A stretch of 63,851 nt of DNA, filler included. It is 4 parts of 4 records of this genome, joined end to end, with 100 filler letters (N's around TTAATTAATTAA, not from the genome) between each part and the next. Parts side by side here need not be neighbours in the genome. Positions count along the whole stretch, not along the records: positions 36,722 to 57,515 come from SRR20825006_435; 3 more parts are not named here. One strand, written 5' to 3'. This document shows, piece after piece, positions 2,881-57,515 of the stretch. Both the position numbers and the translations under genes were made by a program. Position 1 is the stretch's first letter. Each line of letters begins with the position of its first letter. A model generated the notes under the pieces. That model saw nothing but the letters and a program-made list of their open reading frames with translations. It searched no databases and was not told the DNA's origin.

Positions 2881-3879
2881 TTAGTTTTCCTGCCGCTTGG
2901 ACGAGATGAGCCAGGCATCCGCCGCCTTCACCGCCATAACAAGCGTGTCGCCCGCCCGCACAAAGAAATCATGTGTCAGATCGCCATAATCATCCGAAGG
3001 GGCGTGATATCCGGGATGGTCTTCGACCCCAAAATACAGAAATGGAATGCCGATCTCGTGAAAGACGGCATGATCGGACTGGTTGGTCCAGTCATCCTGT
3101 CCGAGTTCAGGCGAGTCATGTCCTGTGAGCAGGGTTACCGGCACTTGGGTGGCCAAATCATCAATCATGGGCTTCAGCTGCGGGTAAGGCGTGGTGCCAG
3201 CGACATAGAGTTCTCCCGCGTCGGATCGTCCAACCATGTCGAAATTCATGTTCAATGCGACCCGCCCAAGATCAATCAGCCCAGATTCGACCAGAGCCTT
3301 TGCGCCCTGATAGCCGATTTCTTCGGCGTCCAGCGCGGCAAAGACGATGTCATGCTTGGGAGGATTTCGCTCGAAATATTCTGCGACACCGACAAGCGCG
3401 GCCACACCAGAGGCATTGTCGTCAGCGCCATTATATATTTCTCCGTCAACGATGCCGAGATGGTCGTAATGGGCCGTAACCACGAGCATGGGGCCCCGCC
3501 CCGGCGTCTCCCCGGCGATCCAGCCAACAATATTCACACCGTCTGCCGGTTCCGATAACCCGTCCATTGGCCCCGGCAGGACTGGAAAGGCGTACTCGTA
3601 TGTCCCGTGGAACCTGCGCAGCTCCATCGCCTCGAACCGCTTCAGGATGAATCCCCGTGCTGCGGCATTGCCCGATGATCCCGCAGCACGGCCTTCCAGT
3701 GCGTCCGAGGAAAGCGTTTCCGTCAGGTTCAGCATGGCTGGGCCGTCTACATACATCGCGCGATACTCCGTGAGACGGTCCGCCACGTCGTCATCGCGGT
3801 TCATGTAGAAGAAGACGCCCGCGACAATCATCACAATGAAAAGAACTTCGGCGAGAATGAAGGCGCGCATTCTGGTCAT
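2881..3879 (-). CDS. M28 family metallopeptidase with N-terminal membrane anchor
   Basis: TAHYDHLG, GADDNASG, DAEEIG, NFDMVGR, SDH and YH motifs; start codon uncertain. Confidence 0.9.
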   Translation of the reverse strand: MTRMRAFILAEVLFIVMIVAGVFFYMNRDDDVADRLTEYRAMYVDGPAMLNLTETLSSDALEGRAAGSSGNAAARGFILKRFEAMELRRFHGTYEYAFPVLPGPMDGLSEPADGVNIVGWIAGETPGRGPMLVVTAHYDHLGIVDGEIYNGADDNASGVAALVGVAEYFERNPPKHDIVFAALDAEEIGYQGAKALVESGLIDLGRVALNMNFDMVGRSDAGELYVAGTTPYPQLKPMIDDLATQVPVTLLTGHDSPELGQDDWTNQSDHAVFHEIGIPFLYFGVEDHPGYHAPSDDYGDLTHDFFVRAGDTLVMAVKAADAWLISSKRQEN

Positions 3880-4014
3880 GGGGGCAAATCCAATCATGAT
3901 TTCTGTTATTACCACTTTAGAGTTGCCCTCCTGATGTCACAATCGGTTCAGCCGGATGCTTGACGTCGCAGGTGCTAAACGCCAGTTCTGCCACGCAACT
4001 GGAAGGAACTGCCC

Positions 4015-49869: not shown

Positions 49870-50315
49870 ATGAGATAACCCACTTAAAGAAAATGTGGAA
49901 ACCGCGAGCCAAAAGATCGGCGAAGACCATTGCAGACCCAGTCAGCTTGAAGGGCCTTGAGGGTTCACTGAGCAACGATCATTGGGCGTTTAATGTGACA
50001 TACGCCTTCCGTGATGCACTCGACATTCGCTATGACATGCGGGTCATCAACAAAAGAAAGACCCCGCTATGGACGCAAGGCCCCCTTATAGGCTTCAAAG
50101 ATGGAGATTTAATTCACACAAGGGACAAGCATCGCACGGTTCAAGTTAGATTCGCCCAACCCATGGGCTGGGACAGAGACAAAAACTGCATGTATACCGG
50201 CAGCGTCGTCTTTACCGAATTCAATATTCAAGAAGGTAGGCCAACGGAAATCGCACAGCACACCTGTACCCAGATGGAGTTCCTTGAACTCTTAATATCA
50301 GGTCAGATGCCATAG
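49866..50315 (+). CDS. Hypothetical protein
   Basis: ATGA-coupled to the BRCT gene. Confidence 0.65.
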   Translation: MNEITHLKKMWKPRAKRSAKTIADPVSLKGLEGSLSNDHWAFNVTYAFRDALDIRYDMRVINKRKTPLWTQGPLIGFKDGDLIHTRDKHRTVQVRFAQPMGWDRDKNCMYTGSVVFTEFNIQEGRPTEIAQHTCTQMEFLELLISGQMP

Positions 50316-50332
50316 CGGCACAATAACCCCAT

Positions 50333-50360
50333 AAAACCGCCCACCGAGGCGGTTTTTTTA
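50333..50360 (+). terminator. Terminator ending the immunity/moron transcript
   Basis: AAAACCGCC-CACCGA-GGCGGTTTTTTT. Confidence 0.85.
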
Positions 50361-50388
50361 TGCCCTCTTATCACCACCCCACAAAAAA

Positions 50389-50430
50389 TAAAACATTTTG
50401 TGTTTACTTTATTAAAACACCGTGTTTTAC
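50389..50430. promoter_or_regulatory. OL-like operator(s) / pL region
   Basis: TAAAACACCGTGTTTTA at 50413-50429 matches the OR consensus; weaker TAAAACA half-site at 50389. Confidence 0.8.
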
Positions 50431-50617
50431 TCTAGTCATTCCAGCAACCCGCACCCATGGCAGATGGGGCGCAGCAGGCAACCAGCGCAGAGCCGCACCC
50501 CTTTTGCGGCGTTTTAACGGCTGGCCAGGCCAATAATCTGCAAGCCGGAATTGAAGTTTTCCATAGCCGGTAGCCCCGCCGGTGGCGACAGAGGGGCAAA
50601 ACTTAAGGAGGAGTTTT

Positions 50618-51040
50618 ATGCACGAGCACACAGAGCAACACCTCAACTACCAGCCAGGCTATCGGCTGGCACCGCGAGAAGGCGAAGCGCTGGTATTAGG
50701 CGCCATCGGCAAAACCACCAAAGAAGCCGCAAAAATCATGAACGTAGCGCCGGCCACCGTGAAGGCCTACCAAGACCGCGCCCGAGAAAAGCTTGGCGCC
50801 AAGAACATTGCCCACGCTGTGAGCATCGCCTGGGAAAAAGGCCTGCTTACCGCAAAGCACCTAATGGTTAGCGCGCTGATCCTGTCAGCCGCCTTCGCAC
50901 CGCTCGACGACAACAGCGACGACCTCCGCAGCAATGGCCGCGTAGTGCGCACGCAGCGCCAAGGCCGCAGCGGCCGCCGTCGCGAGAGAACATTCGACTT
51001 CTTGCCACCCGAAATTCAGCCAGAGGAATTGCCAGCATGA
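50618..51040 (+). CDS. LuxR-type HTH protein with Arg-rich C-terminus
   Basis: LAPREGEAL...GKTTKEAAKIMNVAPATVKAY...KLGAKN; AGGAG RBS. Confidence 0.85.
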   Translation: MHEHTEQHLNYQPGYRLAPREGEALVLGAIGKTTKEAAKIMNVAPATVKAYQDRAREKLGAKNIAHAVSIAWEKGLLTAKHLMVSALILSAAFAPLDDNSDDLRSNGRVVRTQRQGRSGRRRERTFDFLPPEIQPEELPA

Positions 51041-51225
51041 ACCGCTCTCCCCTTACCCGAGGCACCACCAAGAAGCTAGTGGGCAACAGCATCAGCGTTG
51101 AGCGCCAGCTGGCGCACCTGGAGCAACAGCAGAAGCTAATGGGCGCGGTATATGTTCGACGCCCCGGCGACCGCGTCAGCATTGTGTACGCCGAAGTGGC
51201 CAGCCACGGAGCCGCCCACAATTGA
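51037..51225 (+). CDS. Hypothetical phage protein
   Basis: Coupled 62-aa ORF. Confidence 0.55.
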   Translation: MNRSPLTRGTTKKLVGNSISVERQLAHLEQQQKLMGAVYVRRPGDRVSIVYAEVASHGAAHN

Positions 51226-51443
51226 ACCCAGAGCTACAAAGAGTGCTTAGCCTGCTGCATACAACCGCAGAGCGCATGGAAGCCATCGAGCGACGAATGG
51301 GCAGCCTGGAGCGCGGCCTAAGCCGCAACAAACTAACAAGCAAAAGCGCCGAGAAAGAAGTAATGACACTGCGCCAGCAAGTCGCGCACAACAGCGAAAT
51401 GATAACCCTGATTACCAAGGCAACAACGGAGCAAAAACCATGA
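51222..51443 (+). CDS. Coiled-coil phage protein
   Basis: Coupled 73-aa ORF. Confidence 0.55.
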   Translation: MNPELQRVLSLLHTTAERMEAIERRMGSLERGLSRNKLTSKSAEKEVMTLRQQVAHNSEMITLITKATTEQKP

Positions 51444-51754
51444 ACGCAGCACCGTTACCCCTACTGAAATACGTGTGCGAAATGCACAACCTACGCCACC
51501 GCGCAGTGGTAAACCGGCTTAAAAAATCAGGCTACCTCAAAACTGGCGAATTTGGCTTGGTGCCCGACTACGCCAACAGCGCCACCAGCGACCATTTCAT
51601 CACCCGAACCGAGAATTACTGGATCCCCATGCCCGGGGGCAACCGCAAAAACTGCGAGCGCACCGTGATTGCCTGCACACCCGCGGGCCAAGAGCTGGTC
51701 GCCAAACTCTGCGCTGACCTCACCAAGCCAGACCAAAGCAGCGAATGCGCATAG
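51440..51754 (+). CDS. Antirepressor KilAC-like domain protein
   Basis: LKKSGYL....P.....HF......T..TPAGQELV pattern. Confidence 0.6.
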   Translation: MNAAPLPLLKYVCEMHNLRHRAVVNRLKKSGYLKTGEFGLVPDYANSATSDHFITRTENYWIPMPGGNRKNCERTVIACTPAGQELVAKLCADLTKPDQSSECA

Positions 51755-51762
51755 GGGTACGC

Positions 51763-52044
51763 ATGTCACAACACGCACCCAGTACAACCCAAAAAGCCCT
51801 GATCAAAGCGCTAGAGCGCGCCGGCACCGCTACGCAAGCCCAGCTCTGCCAGGCCGTAAACCGGCGCCCCGCCACCGTGTCCGCAGCCATGACCCAGCTA
51901 GAACAAGCGGGGCTCGTTAACGCCACATGGCAAGGCCGCCCACGCGAAAAACATTACCGACTACCCCAAGCCAAGAACGCGCGCCGCATCGCTCGCGGCC
52001 CTTGGATCAACCCTCAATGGATGGAGAAACCGCAATGGCTTTGA
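51763..52044 (+). CDS. MarR-like winged-helix protein
   Basis: [36 protein letters not shown]. Confidence 0.75.
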
Positions 52045-52223
52045 TACTCACCCGCCGCATTGGCGAAACCCTAATGGTCGGCGACGACGTCACCGTCACC
52101 GTGCTAGGCACCAAAGGCAACCAGGTGCGCCTGGGCGTAAACGCACCCAAGCACATCGCCGTGCACCGCGAGGAAATTTACGAGCGCGTGCAAGCAAACA
52201 CCAACAAGGACACCGCAGCATGA
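52035..52223 (+). CDS. csrA: Carbon storage regulator CsrA/RsmA homologue (phage-encoded)
   Basis: [52 protein letters not shown]. Confidence 0.95.
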
Positions 52224-52332
52224 TTCGCTGCGAGCCGGAAGAAAAGGGGCTAGCGCCCAGGTGGATCGATAACCGTAATAAAGCGGCAGCAGTGTTTTAC
52301 CCGCCTCGCCCATTAATTTGAGAGTAATTGTC

Positions 52333-52470
52333 ATGAACGAGCACTCCTTGCATCTAAAAGCGTCCTTGAAATGGCGCCCATACATGGCCGCCAAGCTTGC
52401 GTCAGCTGCGTTAATTCTACTGCTTTTTGGTGAAGTGACCATCGCTTTCGACCGAGAGCAAACCCAATGA
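52333..52470 (+). CDS. Small membrane peptide (45 aa)
   Basis: MNEHSL...LASAALILLLFG; ATGA overlap with the next gene; below the ORF-track cutoff. Confidence 0.4.
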   Translation: MNEHSLHLKASLKWRPYMAAKLASAALILLLFGEVTIAFDREQTQ

Positions 52471-52748
52471 AACCCATCGCCGTCTACCGGGGCACCACCA
52501 ACCACGATGGCAAATTCGTCGGCCCCATCCAGCACCCGGGTAAGCGCCGGTACCGCTACCGCGTAGACCTTTGGATAAAAACCGGCAACAGCGCCCTGCT
52601 GCGCGACGAAATCAGCACCAAAGAGCCCGTGCGCCTAAACGACCTGCTCCAAGACCAAGTGCTACCCAACATCGACAGCCTCATTGCCGAAGCCGACCAA
52701 GAAGGCGGCACCCAGCAATACGGCTTTGAAATTTATAAGTGGGGATAA
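52467..52748 (+). CDS. Hypothetical phage protein
   Basis: 93-aa ORF in the early operon. Confidence 0.6.
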   Translation: MKPIAVYRGTTNHDGKFVGPIQHPGKRRYRYRVDLWIKTGNSALLRDEISTKEPVRLNDLLQDQVLPNIDSLIAEADQEGGTQQYGFEIYKWG

Positions 52749-52749
52749 A

Positions 52750-53004
52750 ATGAGCCGCCTCGTGCCCGCCAGCAAATGGATAAACGAAACCTTTGAAGCC
52801 GGTGTATCCACCAAAACCGTCTACAACTGGGTAGCCAATCGCGTCATACCCGGCGTCATCCTCGACGGCAAACCCTTTGTAGACGCCGACAAAGCCGCCG
52901 TACTGCTGGATACCCACACCATCATCACCGCACCCAGCGCCACACCCGTCGACGGCGGCAACGCCACCGTTGCGCAGCTGGTGCAAGGCGGGCTAACCCA
53001 ATGA
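52750..53004 (+). CDS. Excisionase-like HTH protein
   Basis: WINETF..GVSTKTVYNWVANRVIPG...GKPFVD. Confidence 0.7.
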   Translation: MSRLVPASKWINETFEAGVSTKTVYNWVANRVIPGVILDGKPFVDADKAAVLLDTHTIITAPSATPVDGGNATVAQLVQGGLTQ

Positions 53005-53366
53005 CACACCACAACCGCATGCGATGCAGCGCCGAGACCTACCACCAAGCCATGAGCGACGCCCTGCAAAACACACGTGGCACAGATGACGTCTCATGGA
53101 ATAAAGATTTTAAGGCCTCGCTCATTCAGCGCGGCCTATGGCTCACCACCCAGCCTCCGGCGCGCAACACCGCCCTATACCCCAACGGAATGCCCTACCT
53201 AGCACCCCGTTGCTATGGCGCAAAAAACGGCTGGCCGCAAATTACCTATGTTGTATGGATGGTAGACGCCAGCAAAGCATCGCCGCCAACCTGGGTAACA
53301 GCGACACGAATAGGCTGCGCAGCGCTGCTGCTGGTAGCACTGGCTGCGCATTACCTTTTCAGTTGA
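53001..53366 (+). CDS. Hypothetical protein with C-terminal TM segment
   Basis: ATGA-coupled ORF. Confidence 0.6.
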   Translation: MTHHNRMRCSAETYHQAMSDALQNTRGTDDVSWNKDFKASLIQRGLWLTTQPPARNTALYPNGMPYLAPRCYGAKNGWPQITYVVWMVDASKASPPTWVTATRIGCAALLLVALAAHYLFS

Positions 53367-53394
53367 TGTGCATAATCTTGCCGAGGAATAGCTA

Positions 53395-53754
53395 ATGAAG
53401 GACGAATTTCTGGAGCAGTTGGCTGCACTATGCGAGCAATACAGCGCCACTTTTCGATACACCACCAATGACGACGGAATTCATATCGACGTTGGCGGCG
53501 AAGAGGTGTTCGCAGGATTCATGCTGACCGGCAAAGCAGCCGCAAGTGAGCTTCGTGCAGCAAAAAGGGATTTCGCCCGGAGAGCAGGCGACAACAAAGC
53601 AACCGATCAAATGATTGACCGGCTTATGCCGGACCCAGATGGAATATGCTGCCCTCTTTGCCACTATGACGGATGCTGGGACGGCACACCCAAAAGCGAA
53701 AGAAGAGGCGCAATCAGGGAGCTTCTAGAAAAAGCCTTTCGCGAGGAACCCTGA
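53395..53754 (+). CDS. Hypothetical protein; stop codon lies inside the distal attC
   Basis: GAGG RBS; CCPLC..C motif; TGA at 53752-53754. Confidence 0.65.
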   Translation: MKDEFLEQLAALCEQYSATFRYTTNDDGIHIDVGGEEVFAGFMLTGKAAASELRAAKRDFARRAGDNKATDQMIDRLMPDPDGICCPLCHYDGCWDGTPKSERRGAIRELLEKAFREEP

Positions 53755-53834
53755 ACACACGGGCAGGCAAAACGCGCAGCGGTTTGACTGTCCGACGGAG
53801 CGCAGCGGAGTGAACGTGCTGTGATTTGTTAAAA
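53743..53834 (-). repeat. attC site 4 (distal, 92 bp)
   Basis: Minus: TTTTAAC-AAATC-ACA(G)CACG ... CGTGTGT-TCAGG-GTTCCTC; extra base at L'' position 4. Confidence 0.85.
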
Positions 53835-53854
53835 CGCCGGATAAGGACTTGATT

Positions 53855-54055
53855 ATGAGTATTTGTAAGCACGGTACAGATTTAGATGATTACGACTGCA
53901 TGAACTGCGAAAACGAAGACGACCTGATAGCTGAAGCTGCTGGAGATATTCACCACCTGTACATGAATTGCGACGGCGGAGAGGTTCCGCAAATAGAGGA
54001 CATTACTAGAGTGCTGAATTCGCTCGTTGATAATTTGAGTGAAGAGGCGTTTTAA
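53855..54055 (+). CDS. Cassette A gene: small acidic Cys/His protein
   Basis: AAGGA RBS; CKH...CMNC; flanked by GTTAAAACGCC / GGCGTTTTAAC. Confidence 0.75.
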   Translation: MSICKHGTDLDDYDCMNCENEDDLIAEAAGDIHHLYMNCDGGEVPQIEDITRVLNSLVDNLSEEAF

Positions 54056-54121
54056 CCCGCAGGACAGCGGTGAGGAACGAAGCGCAGCGTAGAGACGATC
54101 CGCTGCTACTGATTGTTAAAT
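54050..54121 (-). repeat. attC site 3 (72 bp)
   Basis: Minus: ATTTAAC-AATCA-GTA(G)CAGCGG ... CCGCTGTCC-TGCGG-GTTAAAA. Confidence 0.85.
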
Positions 54122-54134
54122 GCAGGAATTTAAA

Positions 54135-54416
54135 ATGAAGAAACAAAGTAATCCGGCGCCACCGAAAAGCGTGAAGAGGCCGCCGCCCCCACCGGCACCG
54201 CCTCCGCCACGAAGCCCGACCGGGAAGGGAGCGAGCAGACGGCCCGAATTTGATGCTTACAGCAAAATGCTGGCCTGCATACCAACAACGTGGCTTGACC
54301 CGTTGCTGACAGGCCCACACAAGGTTTTGCCTGATGGATATAGCTACAGCCCAAAGGATGTTGAGCGACTGCTGCAGGCGATACGGCACCGCATGGAAAA
54401 AGCTGCGGGCATTTAA
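54135..54416 (+). CDS. Cassette B gene: protein with Pro-rich N-terminus
   Basis: AGGA RBS; RPPPPPAPPPPR; flanked by GTTAAATGC / GCATTTAAC. Confidence 0.7.
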   Translation: MKKQSNPAPPKSVKRPPPPPAPPPPRSPTGKGASRRPEFDAYSKMLACIPTTWLDPLLTGPHKVLPDGYSYSPKDVERLLQAIRHRMEKAAGI

Positions 54417-54536
54417 CCCTGAGTTTTGCGGCCTGCGGAAACGAACACACTGGAGACGATGATGAAGAACGAAACTACCGAGATTGAAACCGATGCGCCG
54501 ACCCAGCAGGTCGCGCCCAACAACGAGTTGTTATCG
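54411..54536 (-). repeat. attC site 2 (126 bp; contains start of cassette C gene)
   Basis: Minus: CGATAAC-AACTC-GTT(G)TTG..GCGACCTGC ... GCAGGCCGCAAAAC-TCAGG-GTTAAAT. Confidence 0.8.
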
Positions 54537-54749
54537 GGCTTTGCGACTGCCGAGGAATTGATTGGCTATTGCGAAATCCACTGCACTACAGAAAGAGCGC
54601 TGTTCAGCGGCAAGCAAATAATCGACATGTTGGTGCTCGCTGGCTACCGCGAGGACACTACGAGTCAGATCGATACGCAAGAGTGGATGTCGGTTCATGG
54701 CGACATGTCCCGCCTCTGCCGAATGGCTCGGGCACGGATGGCCCGATAA
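54459..54749 (+). CDS. Cassette C gene: hypothetical protein
   Basis: GGAG RBS at 54452 inside attC2; core pair GTTATCGGGC / GCCCGATAAC. Confidence 0.75.
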   Translation: MMKNETTEIETDAPTQQVAPNNELLSGFATAEELIGYCEIHCTTERALFSGKQIIDMLVLAGYREDTTSQIDTQEWMSVHGDMSRLCRMARARMAR

Positions 54750-54869
54750 CGACAAAGCTCAGGTGCGGCCAAAAGCCAGTCCTCTAACGAAGACTAGGAG
54801 ATTAAAGCTATGAAGAACTTTACGAAACCCGCGTTGCTTTTGGCCGTCGCCTGGAGCGCCTTGTTAGCG
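54744..54869 (-). repeat. attC site 1 (proximal, 126 bp; encodes signal peptide of cassette D gene)
   Basis: Minus: CGCTAAC-AAGGC-GCT(C)CAGG-CG(A)CGGCCAAAAGC ... GCTTTTGGCCGCA-CCTGAGC-TTTGTC-GTTATCG; canonical box spacing and extrahelical bases. Confidence 0.92.
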
Positions 54870-55073
54870 GGATGCACGAATGCAAATGACGCTCACAGGG
54901 CCCTGACCAATGCCGGGTATACAAACATCCAGACGGGCGGATATGACTGGTTTGCCTGCGGGAATGAAGATTTCTATGCGACAAAATTCAAGGCCACTAA
55001 CCCGGCAGGGAAGCAAGTAAGCGGTGTTGTTTGCTCTGGGCTGCTGTTCAAAAGTGCGACTATCAGGTTTTGA
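54810..55073 (+). CDS. Cassette D gene: small lipoprotein
   Basis: AGGAG RBS; lipobox LLAGC; GYDWFAC...VSGVVCSG; core pair GTTAGCGG / CCGCTAAC. Confidence 0.85.
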   Translation: MKNFTKPALLLAVAWSALLAGCTNANDAHRALTNAGYTNIQTGGYDWFACGNEDFYATKFKATNPAGKQVSGVVCSGLLFKSATIRF

Positions 55074-55110
55074 CCGCTAACCAGTGACTATCAAGCCAAA
55101 GGTCAGTTAA
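55074..55110 (-). other. Putative attI site (crossover G|TT at 55081/55080)
   Basis: GTTAGCG core on the minus strand 45 bp upstream of intI, with no attC hairpin behind it; extent of the site is a guess. Confidence 0.7.
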
Positions 55111-55125
55111 CGCCGGGAGGCAGCT

Positions 55126-56094
55126 ATGAAAGGCAAGGATTTACTACAACAATCAGACCATAAAATGCGGTTTCTTGGGTACTCAAGAGCCACCCGCCGT
55201 AGCTACCTTGGCTGGCTGGCGCAGTATTTCCGTTGGTGCCTGGAAAACCCGACCGGCACAAGCGAGGAAAAAGCCCAGCGCTTTCTGACCCATTTGGCTG
55301 TTGCCCGCACCGTTAGCAGATCAACTCAGCACCAGGCGCTATGTGCCGTGGCATGGTTTTACAAACACATGGCCGCCCAGCCCCTTGGCAACATTGGTCA
55401 ATTCGTCAATACCGCTCGAGGCAGCAAGCTACCCGCCGTGCTATCACAAGACGAGATGCGCCGTTTGCTGGCCGCAATGCGTGGGCAAAACTGGCTCATT
55501 GCTTCCGTGATGTACGGCGGTGGATTGCGACTCACCGAAGCCCTTTCGCTGCGCGTCAAAGACGTAGACGTTGGTCGCCAGCAGGTAACCGTGCGCCAGG
55601 GCAAGGGAAACAAGGATCGCACCACCACCCTATCCAGCTCGATTAGCCAGCAAATTTTGGCCCAGGTAGAGCGCGTTGAACACCAGCATCAACAAGACAT
55701 CGCGGCCGGCTTTGGCGAAGTCTACCTGCCCAATGCCATCGCAAAAAAATACCCCAACGCCCACCGACAAACCGCATGGCAGTACCTTTTCCCCGCCAGC
55801 AAGATCGGAGCATGCCCCGATACCGGCGCACTGCGTCGCCACCACGTGCACCCTACCGCCTTCACCAAAGCGCTAAGGGCCGCAAAAAAGGCGGCGAAGA
55901 TCAACAAACACTTCACCGCCCACGCCCTTCGCCATAGCTTCGCCACACACATGCTGGAGAACGGCGCCGATATCCGCACCGTGCAAGAGCTACTAGGTCA
56001 CAAAGACGTATCGACCACAATGATCTACACGCACGTGATGCAAAAGCACCACGTGCGCAGCCCACTGGAGGCTATAAGCGCCTGCGCAAGTTGA
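55126..56094 (+). CDS. intI: Integron integrase
   Basis: YSRATRRSY, FLTHLA, STQHQAL, LPAVLS, YGGGLR, GKGNKDR, IntI-specific insert EVYLPNAIAKKYPNA..WQYLFPA..RRHH, HALRHSFATH, LLGH, TMIYTHV. Confidence 0.95.
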   Translation: MKGKDLLQQSDHKMRFLGYSRATRRSYLGWLAQYFRWCLENPTGTSEEKAQRFLTHLAVARTVSRSTQHQALCAVAWFYKHMAAQPLGNIGQFVNTARGSKLPAVLSQDEMRRLLAAMRGQNWLIASVMYGGGLRLTEALSLRVKDVDVGRQQVTVRQGKGNKDRTTTLSSSISQQILAQVERVEHQHQQDIAAGFGEVYLPNAIAKKYPNAHRQTAWQYLFPASKIGACPDTGALRRHHVHPTAFTKALRAAKKAAKINKHFTAHALRHSFATHMLENGADIRTVQELLGHKDVSTTMIYTHVMQKHHVRSPLEAISACAS

Positions 56095-56154
56095 CAGCAC
56101 GCCGCCCCACTGACCACTATAAATCCACCACCACACAGCACGGATACCCACGGA

Positions 56155-57393
56155 ATGGCCAGGAAACGCATCGTAGACGGGCTGGAGCTGCCCGAAAACC
56201 TCTACCAGACCCCGCGCAAGGAACCCGGCAAATGGCGCTACAAACGCCCCGATGGCAGCTTCTACACCTTCACCGCGACCACGCAAGACGCCATCGCCGC
56301 CGCGCAAGGCCTCAATGCACAGTTCGCCGCGGGCGCCAAAGTCACCCCAGCCACCAATCCGCAGTACGGCCGCCTCAGCATTCGCCGGCACGTCGAAGAC
56401 TTTATCGACGAGCGCGAGAAGCGCGAACCCAGCCTGCGCAACAAAACCAGCTGGGGCAATCGCAAAGCCTACCTGCGCAGCTACGCCACCCTAAATGCTG
56501 GAAAATCCGTCTCGCAAATCACCTTGCTCGACGTGCAAGCCTGGTGGGACACCCTCACCGGCCACGCCCAGCGCAGCCGACAACCCGAATTTCGCCGGTT
56601 CTTCAACCACCTGCTGGCACGCGGCCTTTGCCCAAAACTTGATGCCAACCCCTTCAGCAGCAGCGACGCCGCACCACGAGTGGAAATGTCAGCCAAGCCA
56701 GCCAAACAGCGCCTGCGCCTCTCTCAAGAGCAATTCTGGCTTATCTACAACCAGGCAGGGGAAAAATACCCATTCCTGCAGATCGCCATGGCCATTAGCC
56801 TCATCACCACCCTACGCCGAGGCGATATCTGCGACCTACAATTCGACGAACATGTGGTCGGCAATCTGCTCAGAAAGCAGATCAACAAAAGCCACGCCCA
56901 GCTCAGCAAAGAATTTGAGCGCCGAGGCGGCAAGGCCGACCCAGCCAACCTAAGCTGGGACCTCAACAAACACCCCCTACTGCGCCAAGTCATCAACCGC
57001 GCCCGCGAACTCAGCCTCAGCCACCAGCGCTGCCCCAGCCTACTCAGCCACAAATACAAACGCCGCTACAAAAGCCAACATCGCAGCCACCCTTACCAGG
57101 TACTACCAAAATTCCTGAGCGACGCCTTCGCCGAGATCCGCGACGAAACCACAGACACAAACGGCAAGAAGCTCTTCGCCGACGTCCAACCAAAGCACCG
57201 CCCCACCTTCCACGAAGTCCGAAGCCTCGCTGGCGACATCTACGCCAACGCAGGCTACACCAAAGCCCAAATCCGAGAGCTCTACGCCCACACAGACGAA
57301 AGCACCACCGAGCGATACCTCAGCGGACACAGTGAAAAATGGCAGGAAATGGACCTCATCATGCCCACAGACGCACTAAGCGGACAATTCTGA
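56155..57393 (+). CDS. int: Prophage tyrosine integrase
   Basis: N-terminal arm-binding region (LPENLY..WRYKRPDG), LRRGDI, PTFHEVRSLA, HT...TERY; adjacent to a tRNA end. Confidence 0.9.
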   Translation: MARKRIVDGLELPENLYQTPRKEPGKWRYKRPDGSFYTFTATTQDAIAAAQGLNAQFAAGAKVTPATNPQYGRLSIRRHVEDFIDEREKREPSLRNKTSWGNRKAYLRSYATLNAGKSVSQITLLDVQAWWDTLTGHAQRSRQPEFRRFFNHLLARGLCPKLDANPFSSSDAAPRVEMSAKPAKQRLRLSQEQFWLIYNQAGEKYPFLQIAMAISLITTLRRGDICDLQFDEHVVGNLLRKQINKSHAQLSKEFERRGGKADPANLSWDLNKHPLLRQVINRARELSLSHQRCPSLLSHKYKRRYKSQHRSHPYQVLPKFLSDAFAEIRDETTDTNGKKLFADVQPKHRPTFHEVRSLAGDIYANAGYTKAQIRELYAHTDESTTERYLSGHSEKWQEMDLIMPTDALSGQF

Positions 57394-57489
57394 CCAAAAA
57401 AAGGGTTTTGTTCAAAACGCGAAAATCAGTGTTCACTTTTGTTCATCGCCATAGCGGGCGCTCGCAACACACTGATTTAAAAAGAGAAT

Positions 57490-57515
57490 TGGTACGACCG
57501 AGTGGATTCGAACCA
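57490..57515 (-). tRNA. tRNA 3' end (Val-like), probable prophage att core
   Basis: Minus strand reads TGGTTCGAATCCACTCGGTCGTACCA, resembling the 3' end of tRNA-Val(GAC); anticodon not visible. Confidence 0.7.

Follow-up and report, generated by a model that had tools for sequence, protein, structure and literature searches.

Canonical integron cassettes, in class 1 mobile integrons as in sedentary chromosomal ones, carry a gene followed by its attC site in the sense direction, recombine at the R' crossover and end in complementary cores. The boxes of attC sites are named here R', R'', L' and L'', and their spacers counted, as is usual for integrons. The phage locus described below shares with these systems the integrase IntI, a divergent layout of putative attI and attC, the R' crossover, the complementary cores at the cassette ends and the order R''-L''-loop-L'-R' with an extra base. 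However, its genes are inverted, its attC sites lie 5' of the genes, and its long sites hold the Shine-Dalgarno sequence (SD), the start codon and a leader.

Other described systems resemble parts of this arrangement. The available part of the study of phage integrons and CALINs by Qi et al. 2023 (PMC9892861) reports, as here, phage-borne intI genes and recombination-competent attC sites, but the complete integrons it describes are fragments of host integrons or of class 1 ones, unlike the present one, and inverted genes or starts inside attC are not mentioned in that part. For attI1 ORF-11 and the fused gcuF1-blaOXA-28 genes, as presented in an excerpt of PMC8876359, the site or the upstream cassette likewise provides initiation and N-terminal residues. 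In that case the platform or a neighbouring cassette is the donor, which varies with position, whereas the start described here lies inside the cassette's own attC and moves along with the cassette. In the same way, the synthetic peptide-encoding attC sites of Nivina et al. 2020 (PMC7439510, in extract) use one DNA as attC and as code for an unstructured peptide. Those sites are engineered and shuffled inside a protein by normal recombination, whereas the present ones are natural, have their R' crossover at the gene boundary and are crossed by the reading frame at R''. Finally, the R'' top-strand recombination treated in the accessible sections of Nivina et al. 2016 (PMC5027507) names a reaction able to swap leaders at the point where hairpin and gene body meet, but this reaction is rare and inverts a cassette in attI, and those sections do not describe hairpin exchange between bodies.

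No description of inverted phage cassettes or of starts inside attC was found in the literature searched, with few subscription journals within reach. The integron cassette variant reported here, whose long attC carries the probable translation start of its gene, is new: it joins recombination site and translation start in one natural attC, within a complete phage integron whose rearrangements are visible at the predicted cores. Assigning each attC to its upstream gene mispairs such cassettes, and in-site starts explain why a class of small phage proteins bears odd N-terminal extensions, either acidic or rich in proline. To our knowledge, how genes acquire their attC is a long-standing open question. 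Since attC is here attached to the 5' end of the gene and has to be in frame with it, laboratory selection for the R'' seam becomes possible: a start-less reporter would light up only when joined in frame to a hairpin.

The phage integron and its inverted cassettes

The window, that is the whole stretch of DNA analysed (63,851 nucleotides, filler included), consists of four contigs with N linkers between them, and the site under study lies on the contig at 36722-57515. This contig carries portal and terminase genes as well as a phage integrase gene (56155-57393). Four small genes (A to D), each headed by an attC-like hairpin, lie upstream of intI, with the phage integrase just beyond (Table 1). 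The stretch 57490-57515, adjoining the phage integrase, resembles a tRNA 3' end on the minus strand and is a possible attachment site; ARAGORN finds no whole tRNA there. The phage gene upstream of the array (53395-53754) terminates inside attC0, crossing its left core.

Table 1. Features of the integron and of its cassettes (positions in the window)
Feature	Position	Strand	Basis or remark
attC0, 92 bp, heads cassette A	53743-53834	-	read by eye
Cassette A, 307 bp	53749-54055		read by eye; an X1 joint skipping exactly 307 bases
attC1, 72 bp, non-coding, heads cassette B (54056-54416)	54050-54121	-	core positions and other runs
attC2, 126 bp	54411-54536	-	L-box arm comparison; top strand is the window's minus strand
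R' core of attC2, ATTTAAC on +	54411-54417	-	crossover between AA and C at 54416/54417; cassette B/C boundary
Cassette C, putative mobile unit (attC2 hairpin and gene C), 333 bp	54417-54749	-	core positions and observed A and B units
SD-like GGAG in attC2 loop	54452-54455	+	sequence
attC2-encoded leader, 24 codons (23 from ATG 54462, the favoured start)	54459-54530	+	shared with P0001 and P0002
Gene C, 96 aa, body about residues 26-96	54459-54749	+	small uncharacterised phage protein domain
R'' core of attC2, GTTATCG on +	54530-54536	-	crossed in frame; seam of hairpin and gene body
attC3, 126 bp; encodes SD, start and signal-peptide-like leader of gene D	54744-54869	-	
Gene D	54810-55073	+	phrog_902
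attI-like site, uncertain limits	55075-55110	-	core CGCTAAC (55075-55081) closes cassette D; between array and intI
intI, integron integrase	55126-56094	+	TIGR02249, 367 bits (cut-off 265)

The locus belongs to the integrons by its IntI, whose catalytic residues R135, K160, H266, R269, H292 and Y301 are invariant in alignment A2, and by a cassette array rearranged at R' cores (cassette B in other contexts, the 307-bp skip, complementary ends in 4/4 cassettes). It is not a CALIN, since an intact intI lies 45 nt from the last core of the array. A TAAC..TATC motif similar to that of the attI-like site was seen by eye ahead of intI in six survey loci (L001-L006). The genes of the array face intI, so the integron promoter Pc could not express them. 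A sigma-70 scan of 50300-55300 returned one site, which is distant, with 2.3 expected by chance; Rfam gave no match at E<=1 within 53000-55300, and nothing in 53000-57400 is matched by the nearest genome (G001). The SDs of genes A and B are located outside their attC sites, which are the shorter, non-coding ones, as the earlier note on this DNA had stated.

The orientation of the sites follows from the extra base of the L box, which lies in the right arm of attC1, attC2 and attC3 and, read by eye, of attC0; the top strand is consequently the minus strand and R' the left core. On the bottom strand, the extra base is a C in attC0, attC1 and attC2 and the usual G in attC3; in the survey presented below (best 80 loci per scan), the usual base is found in 197 of 238 sites and the attC2-type C in 21.

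Ownership of the hairpin was read from rearranged copies. Four of ten listed sequencing runs, from four studies (X1, X3, X5 and X7), were compared over 53400-55400, their matches excluding the body of gene C, gene D and intI. Cassette B (54052/3-54416/9) shows no difference in X1, X3 and X5, and is covered by X7 over 54213-54419. X1 and X3 turn to unrelated DNA behind 54418-54419. In X1, furthermore, 53400-53746 is unchanged and is followed by an attC1-like hairpin, exactly 307 bp of cassette A being absent. Gene B is found with attC1 and without the attC2 hairpin, and therefore attC2 heads cassette C: attC2 is cassette C's own site, as already claimed in the earlier note, the genes are inverted, and each hairpin moves with the gene to its right. 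Cassette B is letter-identical across three studies. Attention may also be drawn to attC1-like hairpins (4-6 differences) that head other bodies in X1, X3 and X7.

The attC2 site and the start of gene C

attC2 has the R'', L'', L' and R' boxes, an extra-helical base and a stem, the latter being weak and the extra base non-canonical. Its L'' box reads GTT[G]TTGG and matches L' at 6/7 positions, with spacers of 5 and 5. The earlier note had recognised the 126-bp site but carried its end 3 nt too far, to 54539 instead of 54536. The R' core is the exact reverse complement of GTTAAAT at the other end of cassette B, and the R'' core that of CGATAAC at 54744-54750; exactly complementary 7-mer cores flank all four genes, a pattern that does not in itself tell which side owns a hairpin. 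In the survey presented below (best 80 loci per scan), complementary cores flank 124/161 bodies, vs 27/261 for core pairs of the same site. The bottom, recombining strand is the sense strand of gene C. IntI would recombine it as a folded single strand, with which the natural seam positions agree. The predicted fold is weak, at -9.5 kcal/mol with the cores paired and -14.6 when free: among the 27 sites of 110-135 bp, just 2 fold more weakly, and the detector score of attC2 (12.0) is just below the survey cut-off of 12.5. With such a fold and its non-canonical extra base, attC2 may now be a poor recombination substrate.

All sequence facts initially reported for the loop hold, namely GGAG at 54452, ATGATG at 54459-54464 and a frame running through GTTATCG. 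From ATG 54459, this frame reads MMKNETTEIETDAPTQQVAPNNEL, codon 24 (TTG) ending on the G of GTTATCG, and is open through the R'' core to TAA 54747-54749, within the next R' core. The anti-SD duplex reaches -8.6 kcal/mol for ATG 54462 and -6.4 for ATG 54459, and the SD is predicted to be only 43% unpaired in the mRNA. attC3 is likewise 126 bp long, starts MKN and crosses its core as TTG TTA. This likeness was seen correctly by the earlier note, but the MKN start is not conserved, being present in 1 of 44 survey leaders (best 80 loci per scan), and 126 bp is no special length (2 of 238 survey sites, best 80 loci per scan). The global identity of attC2 and attC3 is 0.43, for a mean of 0.38 and a 95th percentile of 0.56 among 39 long sites; their local score is reached by 29 of 1000 shuffles, which ignore shared architecture. 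From these comparisons, the two sites are not demonstrably homologous. Gene D matches phrog_902 from residue 9, its LAGC motif starting at the core, and the family profile thus spans a part coded within attC3.

Gene C belongs to a family with 461 representatives at E<=0.001 in a profile search, has no Pfam or NCBIfam match and matches phrog_13182 weakly (E 0.0025). Its fold is predicted confidently and matches uncharacterised phage proteins only, with no usable Atlas match and a best solved-structure Z of 4.0; for this predicted model, a new fold is not shown by these structure searches. The leader is predicted to be unstructured (pLDDT 64 and 52 for residues 1-20) ahead of a confident small domain. 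Sequence searches returned seven relatives, of which two close ones (P0001 and P0002) share the leader and five start with their own Met at the domain; the relatives of attC2 itself start MNE and MINE. A leader-centred search among proteins of 52-168 aa retrieved P0001 and P0002 only, and a degenerate pattern for the right arm of attC2 was found in 0 viral contigs. Residues 13-25, coded by the arm, are identical at 13/13 positions in both proteins, loop-coded residues at 5/10 and 6/10, and the body at 61/71 and 48/71. The leaders of P0001 and P0002, known as peptides, probably also lie within an attC, and the conserved half of the leader would reflect the constraint on the DNA hairpin arm, not a function of the peptide.

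That homologues might lack the extension had been given as a reason for doubt. It is indeed short in most of them, with at most 10 residues before the domain in 118 of 157 family proteins (gene-caller starts), but those proteins own a Met, whereas in gene C neither ATG nor GTG precedes the conserved domain on the stretch behind the core, the domain beginning about four codons past the core. The start at MLVLAG (M57, ATG 54627), whose use would have refuted the earlier note, is very unlikely because an SD is lacking there (-1.7 kcal/mol) and because M57 follows the invariant block (residues 35-49), so that the domain would be halved. At TTG 54558 (L34), a GAGG pairs with -5.9 kcal/mol but is only 2 nt upstream. 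The loop GGAG and ATG would thus be the only credible start of gene C. The family is present in eight metagenome loci, in two of which (L096 and L097) the gene forms a cassette behind a different, 72-bp attC whose arm supplies the SD, the gene's own Met lying 3 nt after the core; in the other six, no such attC site was found at the gene.

Long attC sites as probable translation-start modules

Three viral scans gave 281, 574 and 316 matches, of which the best 80 loci per scan were taken; 223 of 235 loci matched intI, and 135 distinct intI loci were left. The best 80 of 588 matches in bacterial genomes served as control. The box-and-stem detector (cut-off 12.5) missed attC0 and attC1 of the window, so survey counts are lower bounds. 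Of the sites that it returned upstream of intI in the viral loci, at least 244 are oriented as in the window and 8 the other way; the same DNA, once shuffled, gave 3. After removal of 3 of the 244 for short flanks and of 3 of the remaining 241 as near-duplicates, 238 non-redundant sites were retained. One hit, L011, was rejected as false.

Among these 238 sites (best 80 loci per scan), the start lies solely inside attC in 1/115 sites of 50-75 bp and in 0/4 of the next length class, then in 12/57 of 85-99 bp, 10/37 of 100-115 bp, 15/21 of 116-135 bp and 0/4 beyond. Upstream of intI, an in-site SD and ATG followed by 40 or more open codons beyond the core is seen in 40/122 viral sites of at least 85 bp vs 0/122 shorter ones (best 80 per scan), and in 1/29 long and 0/59 short sites of bacterial genome loci (best 80 of 588). 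In 44 viral sites, an SD and ATG are open to the core, and the body is open in that frame in 40 of them; permutation gave a mean of 26.6 and a maximum of 35 in 2000 trials. These comparisons indicate that long attC sites supplying translation starts are a real and common design, as had been proposed from the two sites of the window. Purines make up 0.57 of the loop in long sites and 0.48 in short ones (best 80 loci per scan). According to the available part of PMC5027507, bottom strands of attC are purine-rich; in the present array the mRNA has the sequence of this strand, which would be raw material for SD and ATG.

The inverted orientation of the genes is also widespread in viral loci. SD and start are found on the plus strand at 166/231 viral sites vs 5/231 on the minus strand (best 80 loci per scan), and at 5/80 and 24/80 bacterial ones, respectively (best 80 of 588). 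By this test, 61/70 viral loci and 2/27 genome loci are inverted (best 80 per scan), 20/27 of the latter, bacterial control loci (best 80 of 588), having the canonical orientation. It replaced a weaker test by the longest open reading frame (70/159 viral cassettes inverted vs 4/48 genome ones), which was set aside because antisense frames presumably run long in GC-rich DNA. Five loci (L041, L048, L057, L086 and L089) have attC-like sites downstream of intI, in both orientations in L041 and L048.

Reassortment of hairpins and gene bodies at the R'' core

In the earlier note, the frame shared by attC2 and attC3 was seen as a design enabling swaps of N-termini between bodies. This does not agree with the survey (best 80 loci per scan), where all three frames are used: in the 44 leader sites, the core is crossed as GTT in 28, as G/TTA in 14 and as GT/T in 2, so that two sites are expected to agree about 0.51 of the time. 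The window's frame is that of the minority of 14, and frames are mixed in 6 of the 11 loci where at least two sites bear leaders.

Nevertheless, reassortment itself, which the earlier note had held possible, is seen in nature. Among 261 survey sites (best 80 loci per scan), 26 pairs have hairpins at least 90% alike on unrelated bodies, 16 of them between loci. As far as GTT, they agree at 0.92-1.0; behind it the values are 0.77, 0.85, 0.58, 0.62 and 0.46, for a background of 0.33-0.54, so that the drop comes within 0-4 nt of GTT. In 3/3 leader-bearing pairs, the two bodies are both in frame. Likewise, X5 has an attC2-like hairpin (17 differences and 4 gaps over 54423-54533, none listed in 54498-54533), in which ATG 54462 is retained and one deletion is made up for by one insertion, so that the frame persists; its SD is unreadable. 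This hairpin departs from the window right behind GTTA (54533) into a different body, seen on a single contig at depth 3.1 and without stop in the same frame over the 30 letters shown (10 codons). Conversely, one body can follow another hairpin: the alignment of L321/L325 is confined to the stretch between -9 and the far core, while those of L153/L168 and L317/L320 begin at -16 and -17, respectively. The suggestion that one body might bear different attC-encoded N-termini is borne out by L099/L102, which align from -29 and have different leaders, while the hairpins of L157/L159 and L320/L322 (2 of 6 pairs with hairpin identity <0.7) proved alignable, and these two were rejected as clean replacements. 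Compared in this way, natural sequences indicate that reassortment of hairpins and bodies is an outcome with its seam at the R'' core. This seam may come from top-strand recombination by IntI, from repeated cassette creation with one attC family, or from homologous exchange.

The arrangement could still be read as a canonical array, in which attC2 belongs to gene B and the start of gene C depends on the upstream cassette. Complementary 7-mer cores alone do not separate the two units, and L096/L097, which lie outside the 261-site set, fit this reading: they have an upstream gene and the next hairpin in common and differ behind the core, a pattern unpredicted by a unit cut at R' only. It is however extremely unlikely, being contradicted by the extra base in the right arm and by cassette B, which moves with attC1 and without the attC2 hairpin. 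In the survey (best 80 loci per scan), among 110 site pairs sharing flank words, 8 share the upstream gene end only, while upstream end and hairpin are shared with another body in 0 pairs among the 261 sites. The in-frame ATG might also be incidental, gene C starting at TTG 54558 or at MLVLAG, or being untranslated. The absence of a long extension from most family members, the purine-rich loop, which raises the chance of an SD and ATG, and the predicted accessibility of TTG 54558 go in this direction. Against them stand the frame match of 40/44, which exceeds all 2000 permutations, P0001 and P0002, which keep the leader in frame while their bodies have diverged from that of gene C, the compensating indels that preserve the frame in X5, and the loss of the invariant block from M57; this explanation is most improbable.

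A more dynamic reading, in which IntI actively recombines the top strand at R'' (between G and TT) and swaps leaders, including signal peptides, among same-frame cassettes, draws on the 26 like-hairpin pairs, the 3/3 pairs in frame, X5, and L321/L325 and L099/L102; furthermore, such recombination exists for some sites according to the accessible part of PMC5027507. The same part gives it as several orders of magnitude rarer, there is no common frame (28:14:2), two of the six same-body pairs had alignable hairpins, no upstream-plus-hairpin pair with another body occurs among the 261 sites (best 80 loci per scan), and X5 is a single contig at low depth. In addition, about 30 nt are shared behind the core in L316-L326, enough for homologous exchange. 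Ordinary cassette creation also puts one attC family on many genes, as in Vibrio repeats, and would produce the same picture. Active shuffling of N-termini thus appears unlikely.

The best explanation, which is very probably correct, is that attC2 is the site of cassette C in a phage integron with backward-facing genes, the start in its loop being a portable module. IntI-type rearrangement cuts the left cores (R'), each hairpin accompanying the gene on its right. The array would be transcribed with the phage early genes on the plus strand, and ribosomes would load in the attC2 loop, most likely at ATG 54462, giving an unstructured leader of 23-24 residues fused to the body of gene C. A long attC would then be a translation-start module that is portable: even a gene whose 5' end was lost at capture could be expressed if joined in frame, in any of the open frames, and hairpins and bodies would be re-paired over time at the R'' core. 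A further proposal, possible but doubtful, is that cassettes of phage integrons are made and remade when the 5' end of a gene is joined at R'' (between G and TT) to a hairpin with a leader, probably via IntI. If so, long attC sites would be interchangeable start-plus-leader modules, some with signal peptides, reassorting with bodies; in-frame seams would record the step where a gene gains its attC, and would favour site-specific joining at the DNA level over attachment at the mRNA 3' end.

Several other arrangements were encountered in the survey loci and among the relatives of gene C. The stretch of about 30 nt directly behind the core in L316-L326, common to cassettes with different genes and hairpins, is possibly a third module between attC and gene. 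L006 has a long attC-like site (3777-3900) where, by eye, an ATG frame crosses the core and its stop overlaps the start of the next gene, which suggests translational coupling instead of fusion. In L010, the 15 nt at 3984-3998 are the same as those around the SD and double ATG of the window (54452-54466); the gene is a non-cassette relative of gene C, with a protein 48% identical, and the match may be due to chance or be a trace of origin. Two further family members, P0024 and P0066, have N-termini resembling attC-coded leaders. At L096:588-656 and L097:646-714, a gene C relative without stop reads through the entire next hairpin; this 65-bp hairpin is shared by the two loci, which diverge directly behind its GTTA core, one of them continuing as a promoter-like stretch.
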